Of a stretch of 45,887 nt of DNA, positions 1,084 through 41,448 are shown one piece after another. Numbering within the stretch: the stretch's first letter is position 1; the number at the start of each line of letters is the position of its first letter. The DNA comes from Rozella allomycis CSF55. Taxonomy: Eukaryota. The stretch is from positions 1-45,887 of the forward strand of contig KE560841.1 in assembly GCA_000442015.1 (NCBI GenBank), given 5' to 3'. The position numbers and the translations under genes were made by a program. The notes below the pieces were generated by a model that had not been told where the DNA came from, did no database searches, and saw only the letters and a program-made list of their open reading frames with translations.

Positions 1084-1086
1084 ANG

Positions 1087-4888: not shown

Positions 4889-5590
4889 ATGGAATCAGAA
4901 TTTGTTCACAAAGTTTACAACACTATTGCCCCGCATTTTAGTGAGACTAGATATAAAGCGTGGCCGGTGATAGAAAATTTTTTGAAAAGCCAACCTATAG
5001 GATCACTTGGTGGAGATATCGGTTGCGGGAACGGAAAATATTTCAATATACGAAATGATGTTAATATAATAGGATGCGATAGGTAAGTTATTTCTTAGTT
5101 TTATTATTAGGAGTGAAAATCTTATAAAGATAGCTAATCAGAGAAGGCCATTTACATTTGTTTGTGATGCTTTGAATCTACCATTTAAGAGTGACATATT
5201 TGATTTCGTTATAAGTATTGCTGTTATCCATCATTTTTCAACGGCCGAAAGAAGGCGCAAAGCGATAGAAGAAATACTAAGGGTACTAAGATGTGGTGGT
5301 GAAGCATTGATATTTGTGTGGGCATTTGAACAGGAAGGAAAAAGAAAATTTGCCGAGCAAGATTGTCTAGTCCCTTGGAGACTGCAGAAACAATTTGATG
5401 AAAACGGAGAAGAGAAGGTTTTGCAAAGGTATGTTATAGAAATGGTCAAAAGTCTAGATACTATCATTTATTCAAAAAAGATGAACTGCACAATTTGGTC
5501 GAGGCTGTAATTCTGGATAATAATCGAGTTAAAATTTTGGAGACTGGTTATGATCGAGATAACTGGTTTATTAGAATAACAAAAGAATAG
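4889..5590 (+). CDS. TRM9: tRNA wobble-uridine carboxymethyl methyltransferase (Trm9/ALKBH8 MTase domain); introns 5083-5110 and 5429-5457
   Basis: VHKVYNTIAPHFSETRYKAWP, DIGCGNGKY, ISIAVIHH; splicing restores GCDRSENL and QRYYHLFKKDEL...YDRDNW. Confidence 0.93.
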
Positions 5591-5618
5591 AATAAATTAA
5601 ATCAAGGAGACTAATTCT

Positions 5619-8600
5619 TTATTTAATGCGCTCTTCTTTTGGTTTAAAGAACTCTTCTGCTTTTTGCCTTCGTTCGTAGGAGAGAATAAGTTTGTCTTTA
5701 ACGTGTTGAGGAACCTATATATTTCATTTTAAAAATATACTTTGGACAACAGAGGAAGTGCATCTGAATTAGGGTCTAATTTCAGGGGCTGCCTGTTGTG
5801 AAACCATTTCATGGAAGAATGTGCCACCTGTTTAGGTATTGCAGGAGGTCTAACAGTAAACGATGAAATGTTGATATCTGAAATAAGAGGCTATAATGAA
5901 TGATGTTAGCCTTTACTTGAAAAGGTGGAATATAAGGAAATAGATGATTCTTTTCATTCATTCTGATTATGGGTTTTAGCACTTTCCACAACATATCGTT
6001 GTGATCACAATATTCATTATTATAGAGTAATGTATCCAGTGAGTGATCATTCTTTATAGAAATAGAGCCTAGTTTTTACCTGAATGAATTTCCTTATCAT
6101 GTCCAACTTTTCATTGACTTTAACTGAGCCTTTGTAGACAATACTAAACGTTTTGTTTAATTCAGATAACAGAACTGAAATATTAACGGTAATGTCGCCA
6201 GCAGTTTCACTCTATTTTGAAAAAGGATTTTAATTTTTACTCTGAAATGAACAGTGATGATTTTGGACTCTGATGGTTGAATAACAAATTCTTTTGGCTC
6301 AACAAAGGAAGCTAATTGATTTTTGCCGTCTAAAATTTTGATTGTGACGATTGTATTTCCAGTGTTGACAATTGTAAAAGATTCTCTGACAGTGATGCCT
6401 TTTGAAACAAAAAAATAAAAGTACCTTCTGTTATGATTTGCTTTATAATATTTTCATTTTCCAAATCAATGTGTGAGAATTCAATTGAACAAATTCCTGA
6501 TTTTCCTCTAAATTCTTTTGCGGCGATCATTGTGTTGATTGAAGAAAAAGCATTTATTTTGAAATCAAAAGTATCACCTAAAGAACAAATGGGTGAATAG
6601 TATAATTGAACTGGCCTTGTCTCATTTGGTTTTATATTTTCAATTGATGTAATCAAGTTGGAGTCTATTTTGAAATCTACTATGCTCATATCACATTCAC
6701 TGTTTGTTGCTGAATAATACATTTACCTTTTATTAATGAAATTAAATGATAGACAAATTGGAACAGAAAGATCAACGAGGCCTAAATCTAATGGATCAAA
6801 AGGTGGCTTAGTTTCAATGGAACCCAAGTAATCCACACACTTTCCCTTTAATGGAACGTGATACTCTTTATTTTCTAATTCAACGCATAACAAGCTATGG
6901 TGGATAAGAGCTGAATTTGATTTGAAACTTACTGGAACCAATAGTTCCTGTTTTGGTTGAATTGTCCCTTGAGTGTTTTGTATTTGAAACACTTGATTTT
7001 CATTTTGCTTTAAGTAGACTGAAAAATGTTTATCTGTGCAAGTTAAATTAGTCCATTTGAATGTTTGTGACATTTCCGTGCCGATGAAACAAACACCAAA
7101 ATCAATTTCTTTAAAATCTTTTTCGTCAATTGGTTTCTTATATTATAGATATAAAACAATTACATCGGCTTGAGTACAAAATATTTCAATCTTTTGATGA
7201 CAATTTAGGTAATTTAATTCCAAGAAAGTCTTAATCGAGTTCTTTTCAAGTTTCTCTTGGCACGGTAGAATAGATACATCAATAAAATTAATAGCACATG
7301 GATTGACAAGTAAATTTCTTTGAACTTTTAATTGCTACAGAAAGTTGTGATCGAATTGTTTACTTTATGTGTAGACAGGATTTCAACGTTAATTTCAACG
7401 TTGTTATCATTTTTAATTCCAATTTTTAATGTTTTTTCATCAAATAATCCCTTTTTTGAATAGCGAATCTTTTTACGATTGAACCGAAATCAATCAAGGA
7501 AATTTCGGAATTTAGTTCATCGAGTATTTTCAAATGATTAATAAAACATTTATATTTTATTGGAATTGTAAAGCTGCTGGAGTTTTGTATGGATATATTT
7601 AGTATGGAGTAGTTTTCAACCAGAAGATTTTCATTAAATGATTTTGGTTGAAATGCTATTTCAACTGTGTGTTGATTATTCTTTTTCATTCCCAAAGCAA
7701 AATCTGTTTCATTAATGCGGAAATAATCGTTCTGACAATTTAAAGACAAATTAACTTCTAGTGGTGCATCTCCATCGTTTATTATAGGAAATTCGACAGA
7801 TTTTGATTCGCCAAATAAAATATTTGTGAAATCTAATAGTTGTGGTAAGATTTCTTCTTTTATTTTTAATAAACACCCATAAACTTTACAAAGAATTGAA
7901 TCGGTTGTTGTTTTAGATTTAACAATCAATTTTCTGACATTTTCTTTTAATTTTAACACTTTGCATTTAACGTTTATTATTTTTTCTTGTTTAGACGGAA
8001 TAATTCCATTCATTTCATCGAGTATAGAAAATGGATTATTCAAAGTTGAATCCCACGTCAATTCATATGTACAAACTCCACTTCCGACATTCTTCAATAC
8101 AAAAAACGCGTCACCAAAACTATCTTTTGATATACTTCCAAAATCTACAGAATTATTTTCAATGACTAAATTTGGTATTCCAGTTGAAGCTTTCCACACA
8201 AACCTACAAATTTCATCAAAGTCTTCTAATTGAACCTTTCTCTACAATGACAAATATCTTACTTTGGCTTCAACAATAACAACAACGTCTCTAAATAGAT
8301 CATCCTCCTTGTCTAACGCTTTATAATTGAAACAAATTTCTTTTGAACCCTCTGCTGGTATAATCCCCTCTGGATTTTCTACTTTAAACATTTCATTCAA
8401 TTCTTCTTTGGTTAGTTCAACCCTTGGCAACTCTGATTCAGAATTTTCGTTCAGTTTATTTTGTGAGTTCATTTTCGCTATAGAATTTTGTGAATTCAAT
8501 TTAGATGTAGAATTTTCTGCCAATTTATTTTCTGAGCCCTTCTTCTTATTCTTCTTTTTCTTTTTTACAACTTCTGGCTCTGGAAATAACAATGAAATTC

Positions 8601-11600
8601 TATATTCTACATCAGAACTTCCAAAATTTAAAATAGATCTCTTTTCAGATTTCAAAGATTCAAGATCTATTCTTTCCATAACAATAGAATTTGTATCTTC
8701 CATTTGTATTTGTTCTTCAAAGGCTCTGAAATTGGCTGAAAATTCTCTGGTGATATCAAATTCTAGTACTTTAAATATGATCTGTATCACTGTGTAATGT
8801 ATGGATTACCTTAACAGAAAGTTTGTCTGACTTGCTTGGAGATGCGGTTAATCTAAAAATAGATGTGGCGCGTGGATCCAATTTGAAGGACTCGACATTA
8901 GCGTTTGAATTAACAAAATATTCAAAAACATCAGAGTCAAAAGAAACAGATACGAGAATAGTAAATGGAAAATCACCGTTATTTGCGATTGACAACTGTC
9001 TCTCTTGAGATTCCAAAACACGCATGTTTGTAAAGTTTAGTTGCCCTTGAATGTTTAGTAAAACTTTTCCAATTTCACAATGAATGGGAATGCTAGAAGA
9101 TTCATAATCCTGAACAAGTATTAACAAAGGATAATCTATCGTTTCTCTCTTTATCGGATTAACTTTAAGGACAAATTCTAATCTCTCTGATGGTTGGATC
9201 ACCATAGAATCTATAGAATTCTTAATGACTAATTCATTGTTGTATATTTCTAATTGGTCACTTGGAAGTTCAAATGATATTGAACCAGGACAGGATCCAA
9301 TGTTCTTTAAACTAAATTTTACATTTATTGGACTATCAATTAAAACAATTCGTAAATCTAAAATAGTGGTTTCTGTTATGATTCTAGGTGCTCCTCATTC
9401 ACCCTCAACAAGTAAAGATTCAGAAAACTTTTCCCATTTTAATAAATACTTGACAGAATATTTTAATACTTCTTTTGGCATAAAAATCATTGCTAATGGA
9501 AAAGATTGGCCTGTTGTTATAATAGTCCAACTTTACCTGGTGAAATTGAACCTTCCATTGCACTTAGATCAAAAGGGAAATAGTCATTTGGATTCTTTCT
9601 AGTGAATGGAGACGTTATAGTAAATTTTTCAATAAATTCGCCTTTAAAGTTAGTGAGGATTCATTTACCTTGATTTACAATGTTTAAAGAAAGAGTTTTA
9701 GATTGTTTTCTTGCAACAAGAGAAAAGTTTAATGTTGATGGCTGGAATGCCAATTTGCTAACTCCAACTTGGCCACAAAGAGAAAATCTGCCAATGTAAT
9801 GAGAATTGCCTAGGAATGGTTGAACTATTAAAAGTACCAGTAATTTCAAACACTGAAGAATAAGAGCCACTTTGAATTGCACTAAAGAAAGATCCAACGG
9901 AAATTGATTGATTTGGTTGAATTAAAATGTCATCATTAGTTAATGTGAAGCATTTAAACTTTTTATCAACAACGCCAACAGGTATAACATCCAAATCACT
10001 TAATCTGTTAATTTTAATGAATGCATCTAAATTTCCTTTATTTTTAAGAGAAATAACAAATTTAGATTCTGACTTTTGAGCTGGTCTAATCACCCCCAAA
10101 TTAAATTTCGGAATTTGAGTTTCATTTGTTTTAAACAAATTTAAAGATTCTTTCAACTTTGAATAAACTAAACGCATGTGATCAGAATTTGGAATTAAAG
10201 AAGAGAGAATAGATTCAATTCTATCAATAATCGAGGAAGAATTCAGCTCATCTAAATCTATTTTGATATTTATTTCATTTAAGATATCTTTTAAATTTCT
10301 TTTAATTAAATCAAAATCTAGAGGATGAGATAATTCATTTGGAATTTCTTTCATCAAATTTTCCATTTCAATTATAAATTGGCCGCCAGAGAATGTAATC
10401 AATCCATTTATTTCTTCGCCATCAGGTGTAATCAAGGTATAGCAAACAGAAACTGGAATGTTGAAATCTCTTGGCTGCACAATGAAATCAACTTGAACAT
10501 TCCCATTAGCTGGAATTGCATAATTTAAATTCTCAACAAATGCTAAATCAAATACTTCAATATCAACCTTGTCTCCATTAATTAATGGCGAATGTAAAAT
10601 AGTTTTAAATTTCAATAATTTTGAACTCGTATTTCTCACATTGATTGATTTTGTATGTTTTATTCCAACTTCAACAATTCCATATTCAATCAACGAATCA
10701 TTTTCATCAATCTTCATGAATGGCAATCCAACAATGCCAGAACACATTATAGATCTCACACCCACATCAGTTTCAAAGTATATTGTTGTGTTTAGTGGAT
10801 CAAAATCATTTGGATTAAAACTAACGTTGATTGAAATAGAACCACCTTCAGGAACTACACCACTAAAGGGTTCTATAATCAATACAGAATTGGTGCATTG
10901 AAAGTGGCATTCCGCATCTCCACTATTTGTTGCAATTACACTGAAAGTTCTTTTGTTTCTTAAATAAACAACTCCAAAATCAATTGTCAAAATATTCAAA
11001 TTAAAATTTGGTTTTCCCACAGACACCATCAATGGAATCTTCTTTTCTTCCCAATATCCACCAGGGATTGTTTCATACTTGAAAATTAAATGGGAAGAAA
11101 TATTATTCATTTTCTATCATTTCTATTTATTGTGTGACATACTTGCTTGGCGTAACATTCAATTTGAAATTCAATAGATTTACCAGATTCTAAAATACCA
11201 TCCAATTCGTTTGGATCTTCACTCTGATTAATTTTAAAAATATTGTTTTGTTGAAATAATTGAATTGAGAAATTTGAATTTAGAAATCCTCTATTCGAAA
11301 TCGTTACATTTTTCTGGACTGTCTTTCCAAGTATTACTTTTCCAAATGATATTTTATCATCAATCGTCAACTCTGCACTTGCCCCCGTCCCTAAATAATT
11401 CAGCCTTTTTAATAAAGTTACCTATCAATTGAATCACAGTTTTCCCGTAATTGTGAAGAAAAACTGCTTCACCTTTTCACATTCTATTAATAGATTTACC
11501 CCTGTATTGTGTTTGTGGTCTCACTGGATGGAATTCAACTTGAATTGAAATCTTTCATTCTATATAATACTGAATCTTACCTTTTGTCCAGATTCAATCA

Positions 11601-14600
11601 ACCATTTTCTATCATTAATACTAAATCCTTTTGAAATAGATTTCAATGATAGATTTTGATTCTCAAACGATAAATTAGCCACTTCTAAAAATAGCTTTGA
11701 TGATTCTTGTAATTCTTTATTTCTAACAACACCATACGATTGTCCATTCTGGATACTCTTCTGTACAATAAACATTTCAGCTGGAGCACTTCCAAAATCA
11801 TGAAATGGTGGATAAAACGTTAATTCTCTGTACATTCTACCATTGAGCCTTATAGAAAGAGTCTTTAACAATTTTGGATCAAAAACATTTTCAGTGTCTG
11901 TCAAGATGGGGACATAGTGGAAATTTAATAAACTAGATTTTATGCTTTGAAAAGAACTATTCAATCCAACCTTGAATTGATAACAATAAAATGGTCTTAG
12001 AATGGGCAGTTCAGCACTTCCAAGCATGTTTAATGGAACATTATCTTTTCCTTTAAGAATCAAAGTATTTTTCATAGTTTTATTACTTGCTGAACCTTTA
12101 TTTTTCAAGGTTAAAGTAATTTACTTAATTGTTTTCTATCAAAACGAGTTGTAGGTATTTTAACGTTAATTAATCTAGCAGAGAGCCCCAATCGTTTTAA
12201 TATTTGAAGTTTAGATTTAATTATTTTCCATCCATCTTTCTTTATTGTTGGGATTTGAATGTTATTTTTTTCTAAGTCAGCCGCTGAAAAGGAACACAGT
12301 TGTACAAACATGACCAATTTTTTATAGGAGAATATTTAATTACTTGAATGGTAGATGGTACATTTGAAGACAACGCTTTGATTTGTAATGGCAGAGTTCC
12401 TCTATTGCTTACAAACATATCAACCCATGCGATACACCCATCTCTATATCTTCCAAAATCTATTTCTTTTCTTGTTTCACCGTTTGGTTTATCAAAGGCC
12501 AATTCAACTGTTCCACCAACACCGCGTAAATCTATTAAATGGACTGAATTTTCATAAAATATCTGGCATTTTTGATTAAATGTCTTGCTTTCCAAAGGAT
12601 TGAATGATAATTTAATTTGACTGGAATTATCTTTTAATCTAGATCTAATCTATTCTAGTACCTGGCTTAATTTCAAGAAATTTATTGTCGATATCAAATG
12701 GAGGTTTAGACAATAATGTTAATTCTGTTGATTGTATCCCCTTGTTTGACAAAGTAAAAACATTGTTGATTGGATTATTAATCAGAGTGTTTCCTATATT
12801 GCAAATATTAATGAAATACCAAAATCAATATAATCAGGTGCGCCTAGAATGTTACAAGGGAAGAATCTAATCTGAATAAACTAAAAAGAAATTACTGTCC
12901 ACGCATCACAATAGATGCAACTCTAACAGCTTTACTATTTCTATCCAATGTTTCTTTAATATAAATTTCAGCAAAGCTTTCATAATAACCATTTGATTTA
13001 ACATTAAAGTTGATCTGTAAAGGAAATGTCTCCAATGGGTTAACATCGCCTGAATACAATTGTGGCTCAAATGGCAGCAGATGGCTTTTAGAAAACTTTA
13101 TGGACCAGCTGTAAGAAACATTTCCAATGTTAATCAACAACAAAGTTTGAACTGAAGTTTTCAACATTGAATTTGTATTTTCAATAAAACCAAAATCTAA
13201 AACAATTTCTTCATCTATATTCTTAGAAGCAGGTAACACTAAGAAATCAGGCCTATTTTTACCGATTAATTGACAGAAACCAACACTTGAATCCTTTTCA
13301 GATAAAGTCGCAGCAAACCCATAACATGTTGCCATATCAGGTCCATTGGGTGGAGTGTAGATTATTTCAATGTTTCCAGAATCATTAGATATCAATGAAC
13401 GAGACGGTGGATCAACAGTAAACCCAGTTGAGCTTATAAATGAAATATTGTGATTTTCTTTGCTTTTATTTTGAACTATTGAATTAACAACAACAGGCTT
13501 CCTATCACTTTTTGGTTTGAAAATAACAGATTCAAACTTGAAATTAATTAATGAAGTATAATTTTGAATAGGCAAAACATCTAAATTGTCTAAATGAAAC
13601 AATCTTGTCATGGACTCTTCATTTGCAGGATATTCGTCTATAATACGTCTTGGATGGGCAATCCATGTTTTCAAAAAGTCAAAATTATTGAAATTAAATG
13701 ATTCGGCCAAAGTTGAAAAGGGTTGAACACAAATTCCAACTAGATAGATGGAATGATTAAATGGGCCAGGTTCAATACTAATTGTTTTGTTTTCATTAAT
13801 TTTAAGAGACAAATCAATCTTTTTTAATAAAGGACCTCTTCTTAACCCTTTGAATTTAAAAGACAGTGCAAGGGAAGATCGACCTCTTATTAACGTTTCT
13901 TCGTTTAAATTGACACTAAAGAAAGAAGATTCATTTTGATCAACTTGCAATCCATTTATTTTAAATTTTAAATCATACGTTGACTGATTAATTATAACAG
14001 TGTTGATTGTTTCACTCATTGAATGGAATACAGGTTTGAAGAATACAAAATCATACAATGGAATAAACAGTGGCTGACCAACAAATGCGTGAATAAAAAT
14101 AGGAATATTCTGAAACCCTGGGCAAACTAATTCTATAAATGAATTAAATTGATTTTCATTTTGTATTTTCAATTGAATTTCAACTGTATACGCAGTCTGT
14201 GGGGCTATGCGAATTCTATTATCTATTGTAATGCATTCATCTCTTGTAAACAACGCTATTGTTAAAGGATTATTACTTAGATTCATTATGGTTAACAATT
14301 TCTTATAACTTTGATCTTTTTCGATAATACCAAAATCTATTTTATAGGCATCTTCAATATTTGCATAATGGGAAGATGCATAATAGATACTTTTTAAAAG
14401 ATTTGTATTAGTTTCAGATATTTTTGTCTTTTTTTGATCCCCTTGAATCTTTTTATAGAATTTCTTTAGAAACATTGTTCGCTCTCTAGAAACTCCACTT
14501 GATCCAATATCCAAAACTTCATCATCTTCAACATACAGAGCCAAAGGTACTCCACAGAATCCATTTAATTCAACTGAAATTATTTCTCCGCCCGGGGCTT

Positions 14601-17600
14601 CAATTTGTAATTCTTCTTGAAAAGATCCTTGGTGTGTTGGCATAAATGTTATGGGAAAAGATCTCGTTTCATACCTTTCCAGCCCTATTTTATTCATTGG
14701 AATTGAAAACGTTGGTTCCTTGCTATTCTCCATCAAATCATCTTTATTCTTGTTAACCAACTTGCAATCTAAATAGATCAATTGAGGTGAAACATTTTGA
14801 ATTGAAATTTGCATTTCTCTTTGTTTTCCAAGAATAATCCATCCATAATCCAAGTTTTTGGTATTTATCTTTACAAAACTTGAATTATACGCAATCAAAG
14901 TAGACTGTGCCAACTTTTTCCCATTATCATCCATCACACTCAATGTTCCTTCAGCTTTGTCCATCTTCATGGCCATTGGATAATAAGTGACGTCAATCTC
15001 AACACTTCCATCGCCTACTAAATGCAAATGAAATGATTTAACTCCAAACACTTCCGCTGGCTTTGCTGAAATAAAATATTCCTTTTCTTTAAAATCACTT
15101 CTCATTGATTTATACTTTAATTGCAAGCTTCTAGTCACAGGATTTCTAACTGATTGAAATTCAATTCTTGTAGGCTCAAAACTCATTTTCATTGTATTAT
15201 TCTTAAATGAATCAAATGCGCTACTTTCCTCAAATAACTCGAGTAAATCATTCATATTCTGAGGTGGTAAATTATCTGCAGCGTTGGAATTAAGAACATT
15301 AGAAAACGTTGTCGCGCTAGAAAATAATGACTCTGCTGTAATTGATGCTCTCATGCTATGTCTTTTTTGCAACCTGGCATCTTTAACTTCTAATGCTTTT
15401 TGGACCTCAGGTTTATTCCTTTTTAAACTAGCCATCATTTCTTCAAACATCTTTGTCTTTATATCACTTTTAACTGATTCTTCATCATCACTCATGAAAT
15501 CATAATTCTTCATTTTATCCATGGCGTATCTTTGTGACAACTGTATGATACCTATATCTTCCACTTTTACCATTTACCCTTTTGTTTTAGCAAACTTGAT
15601 ATATCATAGAATGGTATTCCATCAGGCGTATAACCTACAGGACTAGGAATAAAAGCTCCACCAGGAATAAATATTGGTTGCCCTTCATAATCATAGCCAA
15701 CAAAAAGGTTTGAGGGCTTCACTGGCTCCTTTTTATTATAAAATCTTTTTCCAGATAAACTCATCGCTGCTGGTATGGGCTTAACCGTTGCCGTCTTTGA
15801 AAAGTATGGGATTCCTTCATCCGTATAACCACAGGGCACTGGTGGCATATTTCTATTAAATAATGTTTATAAACTCTTACACAGGAGGTGCAAAATACGG
15901 CTCTCCCTTAAATGTAATTCCCGCGGGACACGGTTCCACAATTTTGTATTCAGAATTTCTCTTTGCCAAAATTGCCATATCTTTCACAGTCGCTTTCGTA
16001 ATATTACCTTCATTATAATTATCATTGATTATCTCCAAATTAACTGTAATCCAAACATCATCCTTCCCTCTTGGTCTCACATATACGCTGAATGTAGAGC
16101 CAACTATAAATTGCCGTCTATTTCAACTTGAAAAAAATTATACTTGCTATCTCTATCTGCCTCTACTGAAATTGATGAAACATCCTTGTTTAGCCCAACA
16201 ACTTTGCTCAAAAACCTAACTGGCTTCTTTCCTGGTTGAATAATCTCAAAAACAACAGGTGCATTCATAACAAAATCTGAATTTGGCTTCTCATTTTTTA
16301 ACAATCTCTAATTAACTACAAAATGCCTTTACGGATCAACAGTCGGCCACAAGATTGGATGTCGCTCAAATGTATATCCTTCAGGCGCAATAGAAACAAT
16401 TTGTCTTTTTGTTTCTAATCTTAATGGCGTTGATTCGTAATCTTCAGGCTTGAATTTCCCGGGTGTAAATGGGATAGATGTATTTGGAGATATTTTCAGA
16501 AATCCCCTGGGTATCCCAGTCCTCACATCTGCATCCTCTAATGGGGGTTGTTTAACATAATCACTTGGCATCTGTTTTGAATTTATTAGTTTAGAAGGTG
16601 AATATGTATATCCGACTGGTAGCCCCGGCACATTACCGCTTCGCTCACTTGCTTCATATGCTGACACAGGAGGCTCAATTCTAACTTCACTGTCTGTGTG
16701 GATAAAAGTTGGTGGAACAGTAGTCGCATTTGATGGAACCCCCGGAATGGGCGGTAAAGGCCGAGATATAGACACAAAAGACTCTGCATGAATCGGCAAT
16801 TTAACAACAATGTCAGCAGTATATATCAAAGAAGAATTCATATCAACAAACAGTCCAGGTGTTCCATCAACACATTCCAGCTGTGTCGACGTCCCTGGAT
16901 TCATCAGCAATTGTCTAAACAGCAATGTCTTCTTGTTAATCTTTGCTTCTTCTTCGTCTCTAACCTTTTTTATTCATTAAATTCAATATTTACATTCAAC
17001 AACGATTTTAAATCCTTTTCGTAAATGCTTTCCTTCATTTCAGGAACTAAAACACATGCTTCCTTTAAACCAGATATTAACGTCTTTATGGCATTCACAG
17101 AAGAGTACTCATTTTCAACAGGCAACCACACACTATCACTTCCAATTCTTCTTTTTACCTTGCGAATTGGATAGCGTCAGCTTGCATGTGCTCCAAATTC
17201 ATCTTTATCAAATTATTCATTTGCTTAAGAAACAACGCACCCACCACCATTTTGTTTTTAGAATTCGTACTTAAATCACCATTTAGCAATTTCAAGACGG
17301 TTTTAATCAGAAATACGTCAGAGTTAGATACTTCAAATTCTCTAAAACAAATATAGAGCATCATTTCATCCATGTATTTTGCTATTTCAGAACTGTGCAT
17401 AAATGACATTCTGGTATATTTCCCCAACGCATGATACAAGTATATTTTGGTTTCCCTCGTGTGCTCAACCAATTGACCGTATCTTTGATGGTATTTAACA
17501 ATACAATACCTTTCACAGTTTTGCAATTGTAATAGTCTAGCAGCAAGCTGCTTGAAGCCATACAATGAAAGCTGCTCGTGACCAGTTTCTCCACCTAAAT

Positions 17601-18156
17601 ATACTCCCAATTTGCCCAAAAGGTATATGGACTTCAGTCTACTCTCTTTGCGTTCATCACTGTTCATTATTCCAACTAGGGCATCCACTAATTTCTACTA
17701 TTTTACAACAGATTTTGTTACATGCTTAACTTCTTCCTCGGGAAGAGTCTTACATATTTCAGGCACGGCTGCCAAAAGAACTCTTAATGTGAGAAACCTA
17801 ATCAAAGGCTCACAATGTTTCAATCCCATGGTAAGTATCATCCATGCTCTTTTGTACATTAGTTGCTGCGTAAAGGTGTCAGCGTATCCTATAAAAATTT
17901 TCCAATCGTTTTACCAGAGTCATGAGATATTAACCCTTTGCTAATCATATTAAGAGCCTTTGTCAAATTCAAATTCAATACCTCAAGGTTCTCAGTGCCT
18001 TTTAATTGGTCCATAACACGGTTGACAATTTGATCAAACTCATGAATATTGGCCGACTTTGACACATAGCCACTAAAATATCCTTTTTTCTTAATCATGT
18101 TTAGCGTAGTATGATACCAATAAGTTGCGCAAAATATCCCAATAGTTCTTTGTCAT
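5619..18156 (-). CDS. Giant (~3800 aa) multi-exon protein with many tandem ASH/Hydin/PapD-like Ig domains, probably ciliary; about 33 mini-introns
   Basis: Repeated (I/L)DFG...(L/I)xNxG...F.P signature across ORFs 5809-15573. All minus-strand ORFs join in frame through 26-31-nt GTA introns from ATG 18156 to TAA 5619, except one TGA at 9395-9397. Confidence 0.75.
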
Positions 18157-18477
18157 TAATAATTTAATTGAACCAGGGTTTGAACAATATGGACACTTTA
18201 ATGAATGAACTAAATGCTTGGCTTTATTTGGCTTTATTTATAAATGCTACTTTTGGCGGTTTCATTTAGCGCTTCAGCTGAAATACTCTTTGTGGCAGTA
18301 CTTGTTTAATGTATGATATGTCAACCCCTTTTTATGTTTTGTATATTTATAGTTTGTTTATCCTCAACAAAGATATCAATTACAGTACGACTTTTGATTT
18401 GGATAATCCATTGATGAGTGCAATGTAGCATGAAAATAGAAAATGTCTTTGACCTCGCCACTTTTCCAGAAAACTCC

Positions 18478-29800: not shown

Positions 29801-30350
29801 AAAACCCTACCTTGAGTTTATCATCATTGCCATTGGTAAATAAAACACTCAAATACACCTTACAATGACCAATAATAAATGGAATGCTGCTTTTAAAGCC
29901 TTTTCCTCTTTTCAAAAAAATTGGCAACTCTTTAGAAATTTCACCTTTCTTGCACACTTGAACCAAGTCCTTGAGTATCATCCAACCCTCTAACTTGGAC
30001 TTTTTTTCCACAACCTTTATAGAAAGATCACCCATATCTTTCAAGTAGCGCTTAAAAACATCTTTTTTGCATCGTATAGGGAAGTCGACCGAATTATCAT
30101 GTTTCTTGCCTTTTGAACTGATTTTCTTTAAAGAAGGTGGTGCAAGAGTCGTTCCACTCGATTTCGAAGGCTCTCCCCACCAAAGAAATGTACATTCAGG
30201 GGCAATTGTAGGTTTATTAGTTCCAACCATTTTTTGCTCTTCTTTCGTCAAGGGCACCCAGTCATAGTCTTCTAGAACAATTTTAAAATACCCTGATATA
30301 CCACCGTTGACGTTAGGGGGTATACTTGTGATAGGCTTTGAAGACATCAT
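26854..30350 (-). CDS. C2CD3: C2-domain centriolar protein, C2CD3-like; two 28-nt introns
   Basis: N-terminal TSIPPNVNG..SGYF, FLWWGE, FPIRC....F.RYLKDM match the C2CD3 N-terminal C2 domain; later C2 domain ends GWYNIVDFKGCIQGQL. Confidence 0.75.
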
Positions 30351-30646: not shown

Positions 30647-30658
30647 TTGGCGCCAAAA
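30647..30658. promoter_or_regulatory. E2F-type site TTGGCGCCAAAA 5 nt upstream of the NSL1 ATG
   Basis: Reverse strand TTTTGGCGC matches the E2F consensus. Confidence 0.5.
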
Positions 30659-30663
30659 CTATA

Positions 30664-31400
30664 ATGCATGCACCATCAAACAACGAGTTCAGAATTCAAG
30701 TAGACTCTCTAGAAGACATAGATTATATTTTATCACAATTACATTCAGTTCTTCCTAAAACAAAGTCATCAGAGTCAGTAAACCCGATTTGGTCCAATCT
30801 AATAGTTCCTCAATGAAATGGCCAATATAATAAGTAAAAACATACTGGTAAATGGGAACGAATGGGTTCCCGGAATGAAAAGGAAGAGTAATCTTCTTGA
30901 ATACTTTGAATTAGGATTTGAGCCTCTTGATGAATCCTTGTTCCAAAGGTTGGAACAATTAGTGCAACAAGTGGATGAACTCGCTAATAAAGTTGCTGTT
31001 TACAGGCGAGAATCATATGGTATACTGCGAAAAAAGGTCCGAGCCCACTATGAAAATGCATTGACAAGAGTGAAAGAAAATATGGACTGCAAATTCGAAA
31101 CAACAGAAGTTGGATCACCTGATAAATGTATTATTCAATCTAAACGTAAAGAGATGTGTTTTTCTTCTCCTAGTTTTTGAAGAATCTATTCAAATGTTTC
31201 AAGATGCTAAAGATACATTTGAAAAATTGAAACTTAATCTTCCAAAAATATCTTCTAAACTTGAAAGAGCATGTACAGTGATGGATGACGAAAATGATCG
31301 CAATACAAGGTTGAAAAATGGTACTGAGCTTCCTGATACGCCAATATTGGAAAGAACAAAAAGGCCTTTGTTGGAATCGTGCCTCAAAAAATCAAATTAA
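30664..31400 (+). CDS. NSL1: Kinetochore MIND/Mis12 complex subunit Nsl1/Mis14-like; three mini-introns
   Basis: RIQVDSLEDIDYI, NILVNG, FEPLDESLFQRLEQL..QVDELANKVAVYRRE, LPKISSKLERA. Confidence 0.7.
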
Positions 31401-31467
31401 TTGAGAATGATTTATTGCAGAAAATAAAATTGAAAGCAGTATTTTTCCATTTACTTTACCATTTTCC

Positions 31468-32101: not shown

Positions 32102-32241
32102 ACACTTTAAATAAAATTAGTCTTTTTTGTTTTTGTGATTAATTTAAATGATTTTTTAAAAAATTATGACTTTTTTTAAAGAAATCTGCTTTATAGTTAA
32201 ACTTAATTAAGAAGACTTGTTTAGAAAACGAAAATTCCAAA

Positions 32242-33292
32242 ATGGATGAACATGACATTTTTGGTAGTGACTTAAGCGATTTAGATGAACATGAGGAAAA
32301 TATAACAATTGAGTAACGGATATTATATATAAATACAAGACGGCAGCCATCAGAGGAAGAAAACAATTTAAAAACGTCAGTGGATGAATTTTTGGGACAA
32401 GAGCAAAATATAAGACATGTAAACTTGCCCGAGAAACAAAATTTATCTTTAAACGATGTGGCTTTAGTGTCTTTTCCCAAATTTATTACAGTCTCCTCAC
32501 ATCCTGCTTTGGCAAATTTAGATGACGAGCCTAACGATTTGGTATTATTAAAGAACACTATAAGATATAGATACAATGAGGATGAAGTAATTATAATATA
32601 AAAACAAAAAAAGATTGAGGGAAACTCTAGAATCGTGAAGTGGTCTGATGGTTCAATGTCACTTGTTATCGGGCAAGAAATTTACGATATCCAAGTTTCC
32701 GATGTACCTTCTAATCAGAATATTCATTTGATGAATTATCACGTCAATGAGGCAACACTAGAAGGCTATAAGAAAGTTGAGAAGAGAATGATGGTTTCGT
32801 CTAACACAAACGACAAAGGATCACACGATAGAATTACCCAGGTTTTGTCAAAACATTTAACTCGAGAGTCTAAAATAAAATCATTTGAATCTAGAGAAGA
32901 TCCTGAAATTTTAAAAGCTCAACTTGAAAGGGTAAATCTGTTCCTTTTGTCGAGACAAGGTTGAAAATGAAAAAATGAGAAGCCAAAGACGGCTTGAAAC
33001 CAAGCGGAGAATCCAAATGGAAAAAGAATTTCTTCCTTCTATGGAACTTAATGTAGATGCGTTAGAACAAGATGAAGATGATGAAGATGAGGAGAACTAT
33101 GAGGATGATTTGAAAGTACTCAAGGCAAAAAAGGACATTGAATCTGACCACAGTGATCTCAACGAAGAAACTCTGTCAGATGATTCAGAAAACAATTTCC
33201 GTTTACCGAAGCAAGCAAAACCAGCGGATGAAAATGATAAAGACAGCGCGCCAATTTTAGCAAGAAAAAGAAATGTAGTCGATGACGAATAA
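32242..33292 (+). CDS. LEO1: Paf1 complex subunit Leo1; three mini-introns
   Basis: MDEHDIFGSDLSD, KNTIRYR, spliced GNSRIVKWSDGSMSLVIG, acidic tail. Confidence 0.9.
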
Positions 33293-33319
33293 TTTATATT
33301 TAATAAAATTAAACAATTT

Positions 33320-34777
33320 TTATTTTTGCGCTTTTCTTTGCTCGTCTATTTGTTCTTCCAAAATTAGATTGGTCTTTAAATGCACATCAAGAGGCGCGAT
33401 TGGTTTTCCATCAACAGCTTGCAGCAAAGGTATGCCTCTTTCTTTGTATGTCTCCAAGTATGCGGTGTTTTTGCTTTCCTGTTTGATAGGACTCACATAA
33501 TTCTGGAATGGATTTCGTTGGTCTACCCCAACTCTTTTAGGTGTCTTTTCATCAATTTGAACTAAAGTTTTCTTCAAATTAGCTTCATTTGCTCTTTCTA
33601 TAAAAAAATCGGGTTTGGAACCTTGAATCCCCTGTGGACTTGGATACATTAAATCTAATTGCTGATTTTGATTAAGAGAAGTCATGCTACGAGAAGTACG
33701 TAACCTATTTGCATGATCAGAATAGTATGTAGCATCAGGTCGCGGTGCATGGCTTGTTGGTGGTGGCCGTATATTGCTCTGGGGATAGTATAAACTCGTG
33801 GGATCGAAAAAAACATGTTGACCAGTCATTGCAGGATAGGGATTCATAACCATCATAGGTCCATATGCTGTCATCACCATCATTGGCGTCATATTAGGGA
33901 CAGGAGGAACGCCATTGTCAATGGGATATTGATTCATATGAGCCATTTGTATATGCTGACGTGTCTCTTGCGACTGCTTATCTTTCATATCATCAATTAA
34001 TGTGACTAGTGGGGCATATCCTGCTATCCTATTTCTCGGTAAATTGGAGACGTCTGGTTTGACCCCGGGACTAAAAGTCATCGATCTGGTGCTTCTAATG
34101 CCATGATTATCGCTTGAATTCATTGTCAACTCCGTCACAGTTGTTTTTCCTGATAACTCTGACGCATCCAATTTATCTAATTGGGGTATCGTGGTTTTTC
34201 TGTGCTTATATTGTGCTTCGCTTTCACTTTCACTAGAGTCCGATATTTCATTAAAAATATCGGATTTGGCAACAACAAGTCTAGAGGACATTGATTTTCG
34301 TAATTCATCCTCTTGTATGTTTGGGGAAGACAAGCGTTCAGGCTCTTTCATTTAAGAAAGCTATTTTTTACCTTCATAAAAAGATATATCATGATTTTCA
34401 TTATCATGATTCGTATGAGACAAAGAGGAACTACAGCTATCAGGATCCGCTGGTAATAGTACGCTATGACGTGGTTGCAAAACTGATATTTTATGTGCAG
34501 CATCTTCTAATATATGATCATTTTTAGTACTTTGTGGTTTTACTTCAGAAACGTCCTCGCTGCTAACGCTTGAGAGATTACCATCTGTGTTTAAATCATT
34601 CGCTTTCACATTATTCTTCCTTTCCTTCTTTTCTTTTCTTGATTTGAACCATCTGAAGGACTTCTTTTTACCTGGACTTTTACGCTTCGGAGACACTGGA
34701 TGTTTAATTTTTTCCTCCGTTAAATTCTCATTTGATTTTCGCAACTTTATTGAGAGCGATTTTAACAGTCCACCCAT
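33320..34777 (-). CDS. Hypothetical low-complexity protein, two exons, possible N-myristoylation (MGGLLKS)
   Basis: ORFs 34361..34777 and 33320..34351 join through a 27-nt gtaaaaaa..aaag intron. Confidence 0.6.
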
Positions 34778-34896
34778 TTATATGAAGGTCGGAGTTTTTA
34801 AAAAATTCAAAATATATAAATAAAATAGATGCCATCGGTAGGAAATTCTCATGAATTAACCGGACCATTCGCACTTGGAAATTTCAAACCTTTTTG

Positions 34897-35407
34897 ATGA
34901 ATTCTCTACCGAAAAGAATAGCAAAAGAAATTGAACGTTTAATGAAAGAACCAGTACCAGGGATACAAGCAGTACCACACGATGACAATTTACGCTATTT
35001 CGATGTATCAATTGAAGGTCCTACTCAGTCACCTTTTGAGGGTGGGAATTTCAAGCTTGAGCTCTTTCTTCCTGAAGAGTACCCAATGGCTCCCCCGAAG
35101 GTTCGATTTTTGAATAAAATTTACCATCCAAATATTGACAAGCTTGGAAGAATTTGCCTTGATATTTTAAAGGACAAATGGAGTCCAGCGTTGCAAATAA
35201 GGACAGGTAATTTTGTTATTTTACGCGAAAAAGTGCTCCTTTCGATCCAAGCATTACTTTCAGCGCCAAATCCTGATGACCCATTAGCAAATGACGTTGC
35301 TCAGCATTGGAAAGAAAATGAACCTGATGCTATTTTGACGGGTAAAGATATTGTAAGGTTTTCAGTTAGCGAAAAAATGGACCTTGGAATACGCCAAGCA
35401 AAAGTAG
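34897..35407 (+). CDS. UBC13: E2 ubiquitin-conjugating enzyme Ubc13/UBE2N; introns 35207-35233 and 35342-35369
   Basis: [45 protein letters not shown]; spliced end [13 protein letters not shown]. Confidence 0.97.
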
Positions 35408-35408
35408 A

Positions 35409-36742
35409 TTAATAAAATCTTTTTATTTCTACTTTAAGTATATCACTGAATGCAACGTTCCACTGATTTTCGACATAATACAATTTAATGTCTATTTGGT
35501 GTGGTAAAAATCTCTTTTCAGGGCCCACAATTTCGTTGAATGACTTTTAGATTTCAAGATATTATGTACCTCGCAGCATTCACTGTTGAAAATATTTCCC
35601 CAGACCTTTAAAGTCTCCAATTTTGTGTTGTTCTTTAAACTATGGTAAATTGCAATTAAACCATCAGGAATGATGCCATTATTTGAAATGTCCAAACTTT
35701 ATAAGAATTTAGTTTAATTTACTGCCGCAAGTTGGTGTCCCATTTTAGATATCTTGAGATTGCCACTGCCCCTTTGAATAAGATTTGATTGTGTGATAAG
35801 TCCAAATATTTTATAGTTTCATTATACTTTAAATAATCCGATAAGCATATGCATCCATCAGCCATTATGTTATTGCTTTTGAATCAGTGGAACAAAATTA
35901 CCGGGAAATGTCAATGCTTTCTAAATTACATGTCACTCCTAAACACTTGCTGAATATTTCCGCGTCAGTGTCGGTAATTGAGTGTTTTGATATTCCTATA
36001 TGCTTTAGTCTTGGATTTATATGAATTAATTTTGTAGCATGTACAATTAGGTCATCCTTTGAGTGCCGTCTAAGAGGATCACCCAAATCGATATAAGAAA
36101 TACCAGTGTTTTTAAGAAGCACAATGTAAAAAGAGAGAATAGCTTCTGTTTTTAGGCCACATGATGCTATCTCCAACTTTTTTAATGTTGAGTTGACCTG
36201 ATCATGATCAATTATTTATTCTACTTGAAGCATTGATGCAAGAAACATGCCTCCTTCATTTTCAATTTCATTATTTGATAAATTTAAATGCTTTAAACTG
36301 TCATTCGATAAGAGGGCTTCCGACAAGTATTTTGCGGTGACATGCCCCATATTGTTCATTTTAAGAATCAAAGATTCCAGTTTGAATGAATTTGACTATA
36401 AAAGATGTTTAAATAATATACTGCAAGCATTTGTGCCAAAATCGGGGCTGCTTGATCAGTCAATCGATTGTAACTCAAGTCCAAGGTTTTAAGAAACGAC
36501 GTCTTCAATAATGGTTGTGACAGCAATTGAAAATTTTCGTCCTTTATAGAAAAATTATGCTCTCTTAGGTTTCCTTTTAGGGTCAATACTACTGGCACTT
36601 CGCTACTCGCTTTTGATAACAATTATTACCCGACAGTAATTGCAGATTCCATTGATTTTTTGAAGTGTGGTATAATTTCACTATTTGATTCTTTACATAA
36701 CGCAAGATAGCTATCCAATAGTTCGATCGCTTCTAAAGCCAT
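35409..36742 (-). CDS. Leucine-rich repeat protein (RI-like), LRRC34-like; six mini-introns
   Basis: [48 protein letters not shown]-term Y...C....L.GN pattern. Confidence 0.75.
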
Positions 36743-36831: not shown

Positions 36832-39800
36832 TTATAGGTCAGCTATGATGCTTAGGAACTTGTCATACGTAATTTGAGCTTGCTTGTATCGTTGAACAAT
36901 TGATTCTAAATCTTTAGAGCGCTGCAAAGCACTGATAGGGTAAAATTATTAAAATTACGGGTGTTGATAAGACAAGTGCATGATTGCTTGGACGGTAGGT
37001 TTATGTGCATTAATAATAGTGGCGCGTATTAGGGCAGCCAGTGAACAATTTGATATAATGACATTGGATTGGAGTGGGCCAAAGAAAGATATCTAATAAA
37101 ACGGAATGAAAAGGTTACCTTTTGGTCGCGATAAACGTCTATCGCGAAAAGACCAGATTTTAGAGGATTGATTACAATGACAACATTTCCAAAGTCCCCT
37201 GAAATAGTGTTAGGTTTGTAAGGTTTGTTGTTTTCATTCCAAACAATGTGAATGTGATCGTTGCCGATATGGCGTTTCTTTTTTATATTTTTTGGGTCAT
37301 TATGATCAGAGGGTATCAAGGTAACGTCGTGGAACATTATTTCACAGAAAGAATCGCAATAATAAATTGAATATTTTCCTGTTGTCAAATTTCTGTCTAG
37401 ACCACCCATGTAGCCTAAATGTGATTCCAAGTCAACCTTTGTGATTACAGAGAAAACCTTTACTGTCCAGCCTAGGCTAGAAACAAACTTTCTATATGAT
37501 ATGCTTGGGTTTTGATTTGCCAGTATAGAAGATTCATATTCCTGATCTTTAGCGACATAAATCAAAGCAACTTTGACTAATTCCCTGCAAGGTTTCTTAT
37601 CAAGAGCTTTAATGTCCCGAAGAAGATTTTGGTTATCAGAAAAGATGGAAAATGAGCCTTTTCGAAAGACATCTGCGTCGAGAAACCCAAATTGACTTAG
37701 GAAAACTCTCCCAACGTTCACTTTCTTCTCAGGTACAGTAGGCGGCTCAACTTTTTCGAATGGCAGACATGTTTTAGTTTATCAAAGAAATTACTTTGAA
37801 TTTATTGTTTGAGATTCCAAATTGTTCATTCTTTCTTGGATTTCTTGGATGCTATCTTCTAGGGCCATTGGCGGGGGCAGAGTTTGGGTCAATGAAAACC
37901 CTTCCTTGATAAAGCAGTCAGGATGAGTTTCTTCAAGGCTACAATTGCAAGCTAATTTTGTTACTATTTTAAACATTCAAGTAGCATGTCGCATTTTTCA
38001 GAATTATTGGAATTTGTCCACAGGGGAATTTCACCTTTATTTCTTTTAAATCCATAATTAATTTCTTCCATTTTATTGCATTTAATATCAAATGGTTGCA
38101 ATTCGGCTGTTTTATAAGAACAGTCAGATTGAAGTGGAGTCACTGACCATGTAAATTTACCAAAGTTGTTCCTTGTGACAATTAAAATTGAATCTTCCTT
38201 GTAAACAACAGACATAATTAAAGAATCGTTGACACAAAAATGTTTGCATGCAGCAACAGGATCGTCAACCCAATTTGATCCTAATATTTCTGGAATAGGA
38301 TTAGGAAAAGAGTGTAAATGATGGGCAGCGTGCATAAAGACAAACTCTGCCAAATGTTTTAAAAGAACTTCATCATTATCTATTGTCTTTGACTTTTTGT
38401 TTTTTGTGTAATTTAAACAAAATTCAATTGCTTCGAAAAGTTGACCTTTTGTTTTCTGATTATTTAATAATTCAGGAAATTTGAAAAGCCACTTGGAAAT
38501 TTCGGAAAGTAAAGAATAGACTATCGGTTTTGATGTCTCTATGTGATGAAAAATAGCAGCCGTTAATTTCTCTATAATATTAATGGATTCTAAAATATCA
38601 AGTTTATCTATGAATAAACTGATGCAATTGACAGTCGCAGACAAGACTGATTCAACATTATTAGTGAACAGTTCATTTAATAACAATGAGAGTGTAGATT
38701 CTTTGAAGAAAATATTCTCAAGAGTCATCATTGTTATAATGAATAGGATTGACATTGAAATTTCACTATTGTCGTGTTGGCAATCCTTTGCTACAATTAA
38801 AGAAGCGTAAAGAGATTTCTATGCAAAAATGAATAAATTTGGTACTTCAAGTTCATTGTATGTGGTATCACCGCATTTTATAGAACTAAACAACTTACAA
38901 AATGAGAAGATTGAGTTTATGAGCGAAATGCAACTCTTTCTTATTGTGAATTCTTGATTTGGCTTTGTTAAAATGGTTTCAAAGTTTTTCAAATATTTGG
39001 GAATGAGAATGTTAACCCCTGGAATATCCAAAGTGAATATACTTTGTGAATGGTTTATTAGAGAATATAGAATATTTGATTCTTTGTATTCCAACCCCTC
39101 TAAATGTACAATTGAATAAGTTACTTGATTTAGAGTTAAAATCATTTTCTCTTTATATTTAAAATCAACATCTTCAATTTTTTGAGATATTATTCTGGCC
39201 AGGGTCGCAAATGCTATTGATTTACCGGGGTTGAACATTCTACAATTTCCCATGGTTCAATCCTGTTACTGTGATAGCAAAGTAGAGTCTATAATTGTGT
39301 CTATAAAGCTTGATAATTTTATTTTTGAATCCCTTGCTCCAATGTCATACTTTTTCAAAAACAATAAAATCTCGACCAGGGAAGCGATACAAGATAGTGA
39401 CTCTGAATGTATTTCTGGTCTCTTTAATTAATTGACCTCTTATTTTCTACTTGGATGTCATTGATATTTCCAATTAAATTGTAAACTTTAAACCACAGAG
39501 TATCGGTGACTTTGATGTTAAAATCCCGGAAAAGATTTTCTTCGACATCATCTAAAGATTCAACACAACTTGCAAAGAGCCCTTTTAACGAAACAATTCC
39601 GTCTGAATTCGACTTTTAAAATTTCGAAATTCTATTACGAATTCTTGAGACATTGATGGAACCATAGAATTCTTTTTCCCAGCATTAAATTGCATGTAGA
39701 GAGATACAAAATCTACTTCAAATTCATCAATAAAATATCTTCTGGTTAAATACAAGATTGATTTCTATTCTAATGACGCGAATACATTACTTTCCATTGA

Positions 39801-41448
39801 GACACTACCGCGTGCCATTTAGTGACTTGAACAACAGATCTATTCAAAAAACTCCAAATTTCATCGTTAAGTATTCCAGATCTAATCCATACGCCATAAA
39901 CAGTCTAATCAATTAAATAGTTTGTCTCTTTTACATGGATCAGAATATCACAAATTTCGTCGGCTTGAGTAGGATCAGTAATGATTGAATATTTATTGGA
40001 AGGAATTAAATGGGATTCTACAACTTTTAACAAACAATTCATCAACTTTTCCCTGTTTGTTTTCCAAGTTGATTTTTACCATGTCATTCTTTGAATATTT
40101 TCTCTTTTACAGATAGAATGAATAAATGAAAACGCTTTTTTGTATGATTTAAGTTGTTCTTTTGTTAAACCCTTTGATGGTCTGCCATCAAATATTTGAA
40201 ATACATAACCCAAATATGTTCTTAAACATGAATTGAACAATTCTTTCACATTATCACCCGAATCATTTAATTCATTTCTTAAGTTCCCTTGTTCAGCTTC
40301 ATTCAGCATAATATCTTGTTTCATATCTTCTCTGTGGCAATACTCTCCAAAACACGTTCTTATTCTTAAATACTCTAATTCCTGGGTGCTGAAGCATTAA
40401 AACTTTACTTTATTGCAAAGAATCTCAAGGAAATTAATCACAATCTCTATAGCATCAATCTTGGAAAATGGACACGATAGCCCATAGTATACCACTCGGT
40501 GTAGCTCTTCCATGCTACCCTCCATCAACTTGGCTAGCATATTAATTGACACACCGTTAGATATTCCATCTCCAAAAAATTGAGTATGTTTATTAATGAA
40601 TTCTTTTTCATCATGAAAAATCCATCCGATAAAATATTTAACAAAGACTTCTTTAATGCTGCTGTCATTCTTGTCGTTAAATGCTTTATTCATCAGAAGT
40701 TTAATAAAGGAAAAAATATATTCTAAAGATTGATCATCCATTGACTCATTGCAAAGAAACTCAAAAATATCTTCAAGCGAAGTTTTCATATCAGTTTCAA
40801 GGTTTTCATGACTGATGGCTGGTATAAACGGTTCACTTTCAATATCAATTTATATTTAATATGTTTATTACTTGACTCACCAACAATTTGATATAGCGAA
40901 GACATGAACAAGTCTGACAAATTCTTTGGAGTCTTTTCTCCACATGTTTTCAACACACTCATAATTATTTGCAACCCACTCGTTCTAATCTTCACATGCC
41001 CTTTGTACGTTAGCAATTGTCTTAAAACATTTTCTTTCTTCATAATACAGTAACTATTACCTAACTGGGAAAACCAATCATCAACGGCGCTATACACACT
41101 GTCATTGACTAACTGAAGGCAAAAATTAACCCAAAGTTGCAGAACTTTAAATAGTTTTAACACTTCTGAAAAGTCTTTGCTCGAAATGATCGTAGTTTTC
41201 GTCTCTTTAGTTTCTAATTCATCGTGATTTTATTAATTACTCTTCAACTTTTCATAACGCAATAGATAACTTTCAATGCATAACGAAAATATAAGTTGCT
41301 CATTTTCTTTGTAGAATTGTTCCATTTCCACCAAAGAAGTCGTTTCCATTAACGCAAATAGTGTAGATATTCTCATTTTCGGTTTTTGCCTTTCATCGAA
41401 AAAGTTTTTCGCCTTTTTCAACAATTTGGGATCGATTGATGTGCTCAT
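36832..41448 (-). CDS. Ral GTPase-activating protein alpha / tuberin-like protein with C-terminal Rap-GAP domain; about 16 mini-introns
   Basis: KVALIYVAKDQE, FVSSLGW, GYMGGLDRN, KKRHIGNDHIHIVWNE, GDFGNVVIVINP; exons joined in frame from ATG 41448. Confidence 0.85.

Follow-up and report, generated by a model that had tools for sequence, protein, structure and literature searches.

The window analysed here is the whole of contig KE560841.1 (45,887 nucleotides, nt) of the fungus-like parasite Rozella allomycis CSF55, from assembly GCA_000442015.1. Between positions 4889 and 41448 it carries 12 intron-bearing genes, which were labelled by Pfam matches, by homologues and by the open frame that remains after splicing; they include a giant ciliary gene of the Hydin/CFAP65 type, a class V myosin and a RalGAP-alpha-like gene (Table 1). 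This report concerns the very short introns of these genes. Curation gave 87 intron units, namely 83 single introns and four modules that abut to form a single 115-nt intron of the myosin tail, with lengths of 26 nt (25 units), 27 (28), 28 (16), 29 (11), 30 (4) and 31 (3), and a mean of 27.4 nt. All 87 units start with GTA, 65 of them with GTAA, and 83 end in AG (TAG 41, AAG 29, CAG 11, GAG 2); the other four end in TG.

Removing the 87 units opens all 12 frames save for one stop in the giant ciliary gene, the only internal stop in the 10,020 codons of the spliced genes. The GT starts, the AG ends of 83 units and the conserved frames that their removal restores agree with introns of the U2-type spliceosomal class. 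The original prediction, made from the letters of the sequence, had described about 85 introns of 26-31 nt that start with GTA and end in TAG, AAG, CAG or GAG; the curated set agrees with it. For 35 units an aligner that is blind to splice motifs returned the exact length (a subset chosen by that agreement), and the remaining units rest on frame and stops. The set was curated with the 26-31-nt range in mind, and it may lack introns that are in frame and free of stops. Doubt attaches to four units (8236-8262, 36603-36629, 39098-39124 and 41034-41060). Gene parsers with a flat length prior over-called in-frame pseudo-introns (136 introns called, only 70 of them at 26-31 nt) and were used for candidate finding only.

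Length, acceptor choice and internal signals

The length pattern was also analyzed without the curated list. Downstream of the 134 sense-strand GTAA motifs, AG ends were found 4 times at 25 nt, 20 times at 26, 28 times at 27 and 12 times at 28, and 3-13 times at each other length from 15 to 45 nt; in the antisense control (126 GTAA) the distances were flat, with 3-11 per length. Profiles of homologous proteins were then aligned to the DNA by the motif-blind aligner, which allows any gap of 10-130 nt and has no knowledge of GT or AG. In three genes it opened 60 gaps, and 22 of the 25 with well-scoring flanks measured 26-31 nt; under a looser cut-off, 27 of 35 did. The three well-flanked exceptions were gaps of 18 and 51 nt that could not be slid to GT-AG and an 89-nt gap in a barely alignable stretch. 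Seven in-frame gaps of 12-60 nt that could not be slid to GT-AG were taken as protein insertions and rejected.

As a control, metagenomes were scanned with the myosin motor exon, which yielded 80 loci, 72 after removal of duplicates. The same aligner, with gaps of 12-100 nt, made 108 GT-AG calls in these loci, with a median of 53 nt and none at 26-31 nt. The position of the 26-nt myosin intron at 24910 is shared with introns of 48-81 nt in 32 of the 72 loci; it was the only one of five tested myosin positions shared exactly, and the other four, including the TG-ended one, were not. Scanning metagenomes with the myosin tail brought up no relative. One RNA run, compared over 16300-36200, gave 29 scattered pieces and no joints; that run does not contain this DNA. 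Neither frequent introns below 26 nt nor simple long introns, both named beforehand as findings that would speak against a fixed-length system, occur in the window. Altogether, these results indicate that the length pattern is real, and on DNA a distance-based definition of the introns is well supported.

Acceptor choice follows the same floor. Within the units, 56 AGs end at positions 8-25 and none is used, whereas 83 end at positions 26-31 and all are used. A rule that takes the first AG ending at position 26 or later fits all 83 AG-ended units; floors of 25, 24 and 27 fit 81, 75 and 60, respectively, a comparison that is partly circular because the unit set was curated. Use of the 21 skipped AGs that end at positions 20-25 would shift the frame in 15 cases and leave a stop in two, and the remaining four are open and in frame. 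For these four, homology prefers the longer form in two and the 21-nt form at 8262, and 36629 rests on its open frame. Five units cited in the original prediction for skipping proximal AGs (16306-16332, 17695-17721, 27267-27294, 35342-35369 and 12631-12661) proved exact, both in their bounds and in the AGs passed over (Table 1). Its claim of a hard 26-nt minimum with a narrow window fits the DNA as regards the floor, but the upper edge is weakly tested, with no unused AG at position 26 or beyond against 2.2 expected (P 0.11). Position -3 lies near background, except that G is rare, so there is no preference for YAG.

Internal signals were then examined. The branch consensus takes the form YTRAY and its relatives; YTRAY occurs in 30 of the 87 units, with no excess over shuffled sequences (24.4 +/- 4.2). 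Nor is there a pyrimidine tract, as the last 12 to 4 bases are 48% pyrimidine with no rise toward the 3' end. An A stands at position 23 from the donor (A23) in 59 of 87 units against a background of 38%, and in 23 of the 25 units of 26 nt. In units of at least 28 nt, A23 is still found in 21 of 34 (P 0.004), and an A at -4 in 15 of 34 (P 0.27). Exonic GTA...AG decoys carry A23 in 21 of 60 cases, compared with 55 of the 83 true AG-ended units (P 0.0003), and an A somewhere at positions 22-24 is present in 82 of 87 units, against 58-61 for three upstream triplets. The earlier statement that no branch or pyrimidine consensus is evident thus holds for motif and tract but not for position.

TG-ended introns and the myosin tail intron

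All four TG-ended units contain A23, lack an AG at positions 26-31 and use the first G at position 26 or later; the next AG ends at 33, 36, 44 or 60. In the two units with both a TG and an AG in range, the AG is used. Homology backs two of the four TG ends (24406 and 12343), and the two in the RalGAP-alpha-like gene, 40871 and 37794, are ambiguous. For the myosin intron the profile score was 230.2, compared with at most 215.2 for six alternatives, one of them a 14-nt GT-AG intron. Base miscalls are an unlikely source of these ends. From one stop in 10,020 codons, 0.26 miscalls are expected among 87 acceptors (P for at least four, 0.00015); counting by hand only the two TGs backed by homology, P is about 0.03. 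We infer that the TG ends are spliced as such.

The 115-nt intron of the myosin tail consists of units of 27, 28, 30 and 30 nt with donors at 21330, 21303, 21275 and 21245, and its three AG/GTA junctions are intact. None of 200,000 shuffles could be tiled into units of 26-31 nt, and this stack is the only such chain on either strand of the window. Taking out one, two or three units from the 5' side brings an immediate stop. Five of the six pairs of units have diverged like unrelated introns, and units 3 and 4 show a slight resemblance (P 0.04). A recent tandem duplication of the units is not supported. Junctions kept between diverged units point to use, and the stack is probably removed unit by unit.

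The public myosin model, P0001, is truncated and mis-spliced at 1,026 amino acids, whereas the window spliced as described here gives 1,321 amino acids with a complete tail domain. P0001 ends inside unit 1 of the stack; the residues after the TG intron are absent from it, and one 27-nt intron is retained as coding sequence. One myosin exon of the window matches a protein of R. allomycis CSF55 at 99%.

Other features of the window

The giant ciliary gene has 97 homologues of up to about 5,000 amino acids, the best with 31-37% identity. Its N-terminal part looks armadillo-like and is followed by many immunoglobulin (Ig) domains of the Hydin/CFAP65 type. The in-frame stop is a TGA at 9395-9397 on the minus strand, where homologues have a residue, and it may be an assembly error, an allele or a true nonsense change. 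A 30-nt GTG-AG intron at 9402-9373 that would remove it was rejected and excluded from the 87, as the stop read through as X scores better (45.0 versus 35.1). Upstream, an ATG at 18265 (minus strand) could be joined to this gene only through a 19- or 34-nt GTAG-AAG intron. It was not forced and is uncounted; homology starts near the ATG at 18156, and its use would break the 26-31-nt rule.

In the Aha1 gene, about 120 bases at 18966-19190 (plus strand) are duplicated around an N at 19080, probably at an assembly join, and an N near 948 is flanked by a similar duplication. The UBC13 intron at 35207-35233 is in frame and free of stops, and the unspliced translation has a nine-residue insert relative to human E2 N. 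The middle exon of the RalGAP-alpha-like gene, used as query in a homologue search, had no match. A GTPase-like gene without introns (25290-26468, plus strand; weak Pfam MMR_HSR1) lies among intron-rich neighbours, and between Mis14 and Leo1 (31411-32101, plus strand) there are two overlapping open frames without a Pfam match, possibly a mobile-element fragment. By eye, positions 1-3150 resemble a retrotransposon remnant with integrase- and gag-like stretches on the minus strand, and short direct repeats with several diverged non-coding repeat copies lie at 41870-42020 and 42800-45150. An Rfam search of the window found no small nuclear RNA and nothing else.

Table 1. Genes with short introns and individual introns in the window. 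Introns are listed by span or by donor position, with the length in nt in brackets.
Feature	Position	Strand	Introns	Basis
Methyltransferase gene, which we take to be TRM9-like	4889..5590	+	5083-5110 (28); 5429-5457 (29, AAG at 24 skipped)	Pfam Methyltransf_11; frame open once spliced; introns by frame
Giant Hydin/CFAP65-like Ig-repeat gene, ~3,880 codons, 32 introns	5619..18156	-	18117(28) 17914(26) 17721(27) 17158(26) 16993(29) 16332(27) 16143(26) 15880(28) 15577(26) 12895(29) 12819(26) 12661(31) 12343(29, TG) 12124(29) 11580(29) 11499(27) 11421(31) 11142(29) 9837(28) 9668(27) 9536(26) 8809(28) 8262(27, doubtful) 7476(26) 7363(29) 7163(27) 6726(27) 6424(26) 6240(29) 6079(28) 5916(26) 5740(26)	Pfam, homologues, motif-blind spliced alignment
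Aha1 gene	18430..19569	+	18784-18809 (26); 18907-18932 (26)	Pfam Aha1_N, AHSA1; frame checked to N at 19080
RhoGAP-domain gene	19659..20656	-	20553(26) 20096(27)	Pfam RhoGAP, E 2.4e-6 (below usual strength); open frame
Class V myosin, 1,321 amino acids	20746..25156	-	25129(26) 24910(26) 24630(31) 24406(26, TG) 24163(27) 23837(28) 23624(28) 23458(27) 23167(27) 22934(27) 22771(29), 115-nt stack 21216..21330, 21083(28)	Homology, frame; aligner gives exact length for 9/11 motor-region introns
C2CD3-like gene	26854..30350	-	29810(28) 27294(28, AAG at 24 skipped)	Pfam C2_C2CD3_N; open frame
Mis14-like gene	30664..31400	+	30778-30805 (28); 31146-31173 (28)	Pfam Mis14; open frame
Leo1 gene	32242..33292	+	32313-32339 (27); 32587-32613 (27); 32932-32959 (28, GAG at 23 skipped)	Pfam Leo1; open frame
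Gene without Pfam match	33320..34777	-	34371(27)	Open frame
UBC13 (E2 N) gene	34897..35407	+	35207-35233 (27); 35342-35369 (28, CAG at 24 skipped)	Open frame
Leucine-rich-repeat gene	35410..36742	-	36629(27; 24 also in frame) 36421(26) 36224(27) 35901(26) 35722(26) 35569(26)	Weak Pfam LRR_4; open frame only
RalGAP-alpha-like gene, 17 units	36837..41448	-	41240(27) 41060(27, doubtful) 40871(26, TG, ambiguous) 40408(27) 40079(27) 39934(30) 39790(26) 39638(26) 39450(29) 39269(30) 39124(27, GAG, doubtful) 38845(27) 37964(26) 37794(27, TG, ambiguous) 37463(27) 37118(26) 36958(27)	Homologues, alignment, alternatives scored
Intron, TAG at 25 skipped, ends GAG	16306..16332	-	(27)	Aligner: 27 nt, same bounds; TAG at 25 gives frameshift
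Intron, TAG at 24 skipped	17695..17721	-	(27)	Aligner: 27 nt; proximal TAG gives in-frame stop
Intron, AGs at 7, 12, 17, 23 skipped, none at 26-30	12631..12661	-	(31)	Aligner: 31 nt
Intron ending TG, conserved myosin motor core, next AG at 33	24381..24406	-	(26)	Aligner: 26 nt
Intron ending TG, next AG at 60	12315..12343	-	(29)	Aligner: 29 nt; profile 84.2 vs 73.5 for best GT-AG alternative
Myosin tail intron, four abutting GTA...AG units, no exon between	21216..21330	-	(115)	Aligner: 115 nt, upstream flank weak

Models of intron definition

We propose that these are U2-type spliceosomal introns, in which definition across the intron relies on a distance that is nearly constant, a reading that we hold with slightly more confidence than doubt. 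The spliceosome would bind GTA and set a branch adenosine, without a motif, about 22-23 nt downstream, and ligation would take place at the first AG beyond the branch, which would give both the floor (23 plus at least 3) and the short tail. If A23 is the branch, the floor of 26 follows; AGs ending at 24, of which six are skipped, would contain the branch base, and earlier ones would lie inside the lariat loop. With a ruler that runs from the donor to A23, the skipped AGs would follow from ordinary branch-then-AG selection. In the absence of a reachable AG, a terminal G by itself would be enough, which needs relaxed second-step fidelity. The 115-nt myosin intron would leave unit by unit at its AG/GTA junctions, as expected of a machine unable to span much over 31 nt. 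The original prediction had attributed the TG acceptors and the stacked intron to one system; the missing AGs at 26-31 nt in all four TG units and the tiling of the stack agree with this, but the distance measured is probably the one between the donor and the A near position 23, not that to the acceptor. A more complete form of the model seems less likely than not: a fixed-unit spliceosome with a motif-free branch near 23, ligation as few as 3 nt beyond it, TG serving as sole 3' site in genes that are intact and conserved, a span of no more than about 31 nt, and longer introns built as chains of whole units with obligatory recursive splicing.

Several observations weigh against the proposed definition by distance to A23. 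A joint model finds a separate preference for A at -4 (z 3.6) besides that at position 23 (z 4.7). A23 is missing in 28 of 87 units, though these obey the floor, and it shows no excess match to a yeast-type branch motif (1.86 versus 1.74 of 6). In a 26-nt intron, a branch at 23 leaves 3 nt to the end (23 cases), which is shorter than in budding yeast, where the minimum is 10 nt naturally and 7 nt without Prp18 (PMC10711555), and in Stentor, where the A at 10 of 15 nt leaves 5 (PMC9505925). In Yarrowia, a spacer of 2 nt is described after the branch motif (PMC2483917), and the branch sequences of ciliates are described as variable too (PMC13685798). Some units do not follow the pattern cleanly: 8236..8262 (minus strand), in a poorly conserved stretch, scores 37.0 as 27 nt ending in AAG and 42.6 as 21 nt ending in TAG; 39124 (27 nt, GAG), the second case of a skipped TAG at 25, scores slightly better unspliced; and homology does not decide 41060 or the two RalGAP TG sites. 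Frame-compatible GT-AG alternatives below 26 nt exist for 37 of the 83 single introns (18 of these with a GTA donor), so the list is not free of the curator's length prior. Finally, 60 of the 234 exonic GTA are followed by an AG at 26-31 nt and yet are unspliced in the gene models. The distance rule is thus insufficient, and base composition or other cues must contribute. True units have a lower content of guanine plus cytosine (0.23 versus 0.36), and combine GTAA with A23 in 41 of 83 cases, compared with 6 of 60 decoys, which argues that length works together with composition.

Rather doubtful in our view, an alternative is a pure end-to-end length gate, the form favoured in the original prediction, in which donor and acceptor are bridged at 26 nt or more, with branching at any A located further 5' (about 15-21) and with A23 owed to a protein contact or to a preference on the side of the acceptor. 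The length, skip, TG and stack data fit such a gate equally; it avoids the 3-nt distance from branch to end, and both the independent effect of A at -4 and the adherence to the floor of units without A23 are in its favour. What it does not account for is that A23 keeps its place relative to the donor when units reach at least 28 nt, where -4 is not enriched, and that the triplet at 22-24 stands out so clearly from those upstream. We consider it unlikely that an ordinary compact spliceosome explains the data, with deletion pressure toward a steric minimum, AGs skipped when too near a degenerate branch, TG ends as mutations with weak splicing that a parasite can tolerate, and the 115-nt intron as a decayed tandem array removed in one step. 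In its favour, a minimum spacing between branch and AG is established in yeast (PMC10711555), the upper edge of the length range is weakly tested, and stack units 3 and 4 are slightly alike. The public annotation, with 950,194 nt in 20,623 introns and a mean of 46 nt (PMC8476143, Table S1), also leaves room for longer introns, but the errors of the public myosin model fall at precisely these sites, so that mean is probably inflated. Against this reading, the sole long intron in the window is fully tiled, with intact junctions despite the divergence of its units, and no AG alternative preserves the motor-core stretch at the myosin TG. That the pattern is an artefact, with the range imposed by hand curation or with assembly errors that turned AG into TG, strikes us as very improbable. 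The frame-compatible shorter alternatives and the flat-prior parser counts could be read in this way, and the contig contains Ns, an in-frame stop that is unexplained and the duplication within Aha1; against it stand the GTAA-to-AG peak, which depends on no model, the motif-blind aligner with its metagenome control, and the low number of miscalls expected.

Parts of this architecture are already known. The introns of myxobolid myxozoans and Dicyema japonicum are described as having median lengths of 22-27 nt, a GTa donor, a bare AG and no pyrimidine tract, and weakly conserved A's, which lie farther from the AG in longer introns, were proposed there as branch sites (PMC13644364). The Rozella units share the short length, GTA, the bare AG, the missing tract and the donor-anchored A, an architecture that is already published for those animals. 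In the available text of that paper no floor of skipped AGs, TG ends or tiling is described, and introns above 100 nt exist; its supplement S9 may show more. As myxobolids and Dicyema are animals, the likeness to Rozella is convergent. The 15-16-nt introns of Stentor coeruleus are alike in their GUA donor, lack of a branch motif, fixed-position branch A and AT-richness, but they are shorter, and the A lies at 10 in 15-mers and at 11 in 16-mers (PMC9505925). The Stentor A shifts with length and is thus anchored to the 3' end, whereas the Rozella A is anchored to the 5' end.

Yeast without Prp18, described as a ruler for the minimum distance from branch to 3' site, uses GAG and BG (TG, CG, GG) 3' sites and branch-proximal sites, but in a mutant and as minor alternatives (PMC10711555), whereas TG would be the sole site in intact Rozella genes. 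In human U2 introns, TG works as a 3' site only beside an AG (PMC2374985); the Rozella TG units have no AG within 26-31 nt. Ratchet-point recursive splicing in Drosophila likewise involves a juxtaposed acceptor and donor and consecutive removal, in long introns (PMC8605326). The myosin stack has an acceptor followed by a donor inside the intron, three times over, but in a tiled intron of 115 nt, and we infer a mode of action like that of recursive splicing, though in another setting. Fungal stwintrons are also removed consecutively, but are nested inside a splice signal (PMC7138796), whereas the stack units are complete and lie head to tail.

For Rozella itself, two introns in S23, each about 30 nt long and lacking conserved motifs at the 5' end and the branch, were remarked on in passing (PMC6349667), and about 2.5-2.8 introns per kb are reported (PMC6349667, PMC8476143). 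The annotated mean of 46 nt compares with 27.4 nt here, and in the available portions of these two papers there is neither a histogram of lengths nor any mention of a floor, a positional A, TG ends or stacks; in the main text of PMC5701793 the word intron is absent. A literature search, with most subscription papers and the original genome paper outside its reach, found no floor, sole TG ends or tiled introns for Rozella. Thus, the sharp floor, the sole TG ends and the tiled introns are apparently new elements of the ultra-short kind of intron, and the supplementary logos of PMC13644364 may bear on this novelty.

As read from the DNA, the sharply length-limited intron system in this stretch of R. 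allomycis is real, and it suggests that the splicing machine measures distance. The setting of the distances between donor, branch and acceptor, and the near-invariance of AG, are usually studied in mutants. If the proposed definition is true, Rozella, which is in culture and stands at the base of the line leading to fungi and microsporidia, would offer about 20,000 natural introns of a single size and would allow the distance rule, sole TG acceptors and recursive splicing to be examined together. Rozella gene models that enter phylogenomic analyses are probably in error at sites of this kind, as P0001 omits residues of the motor core and terminates within the stack.

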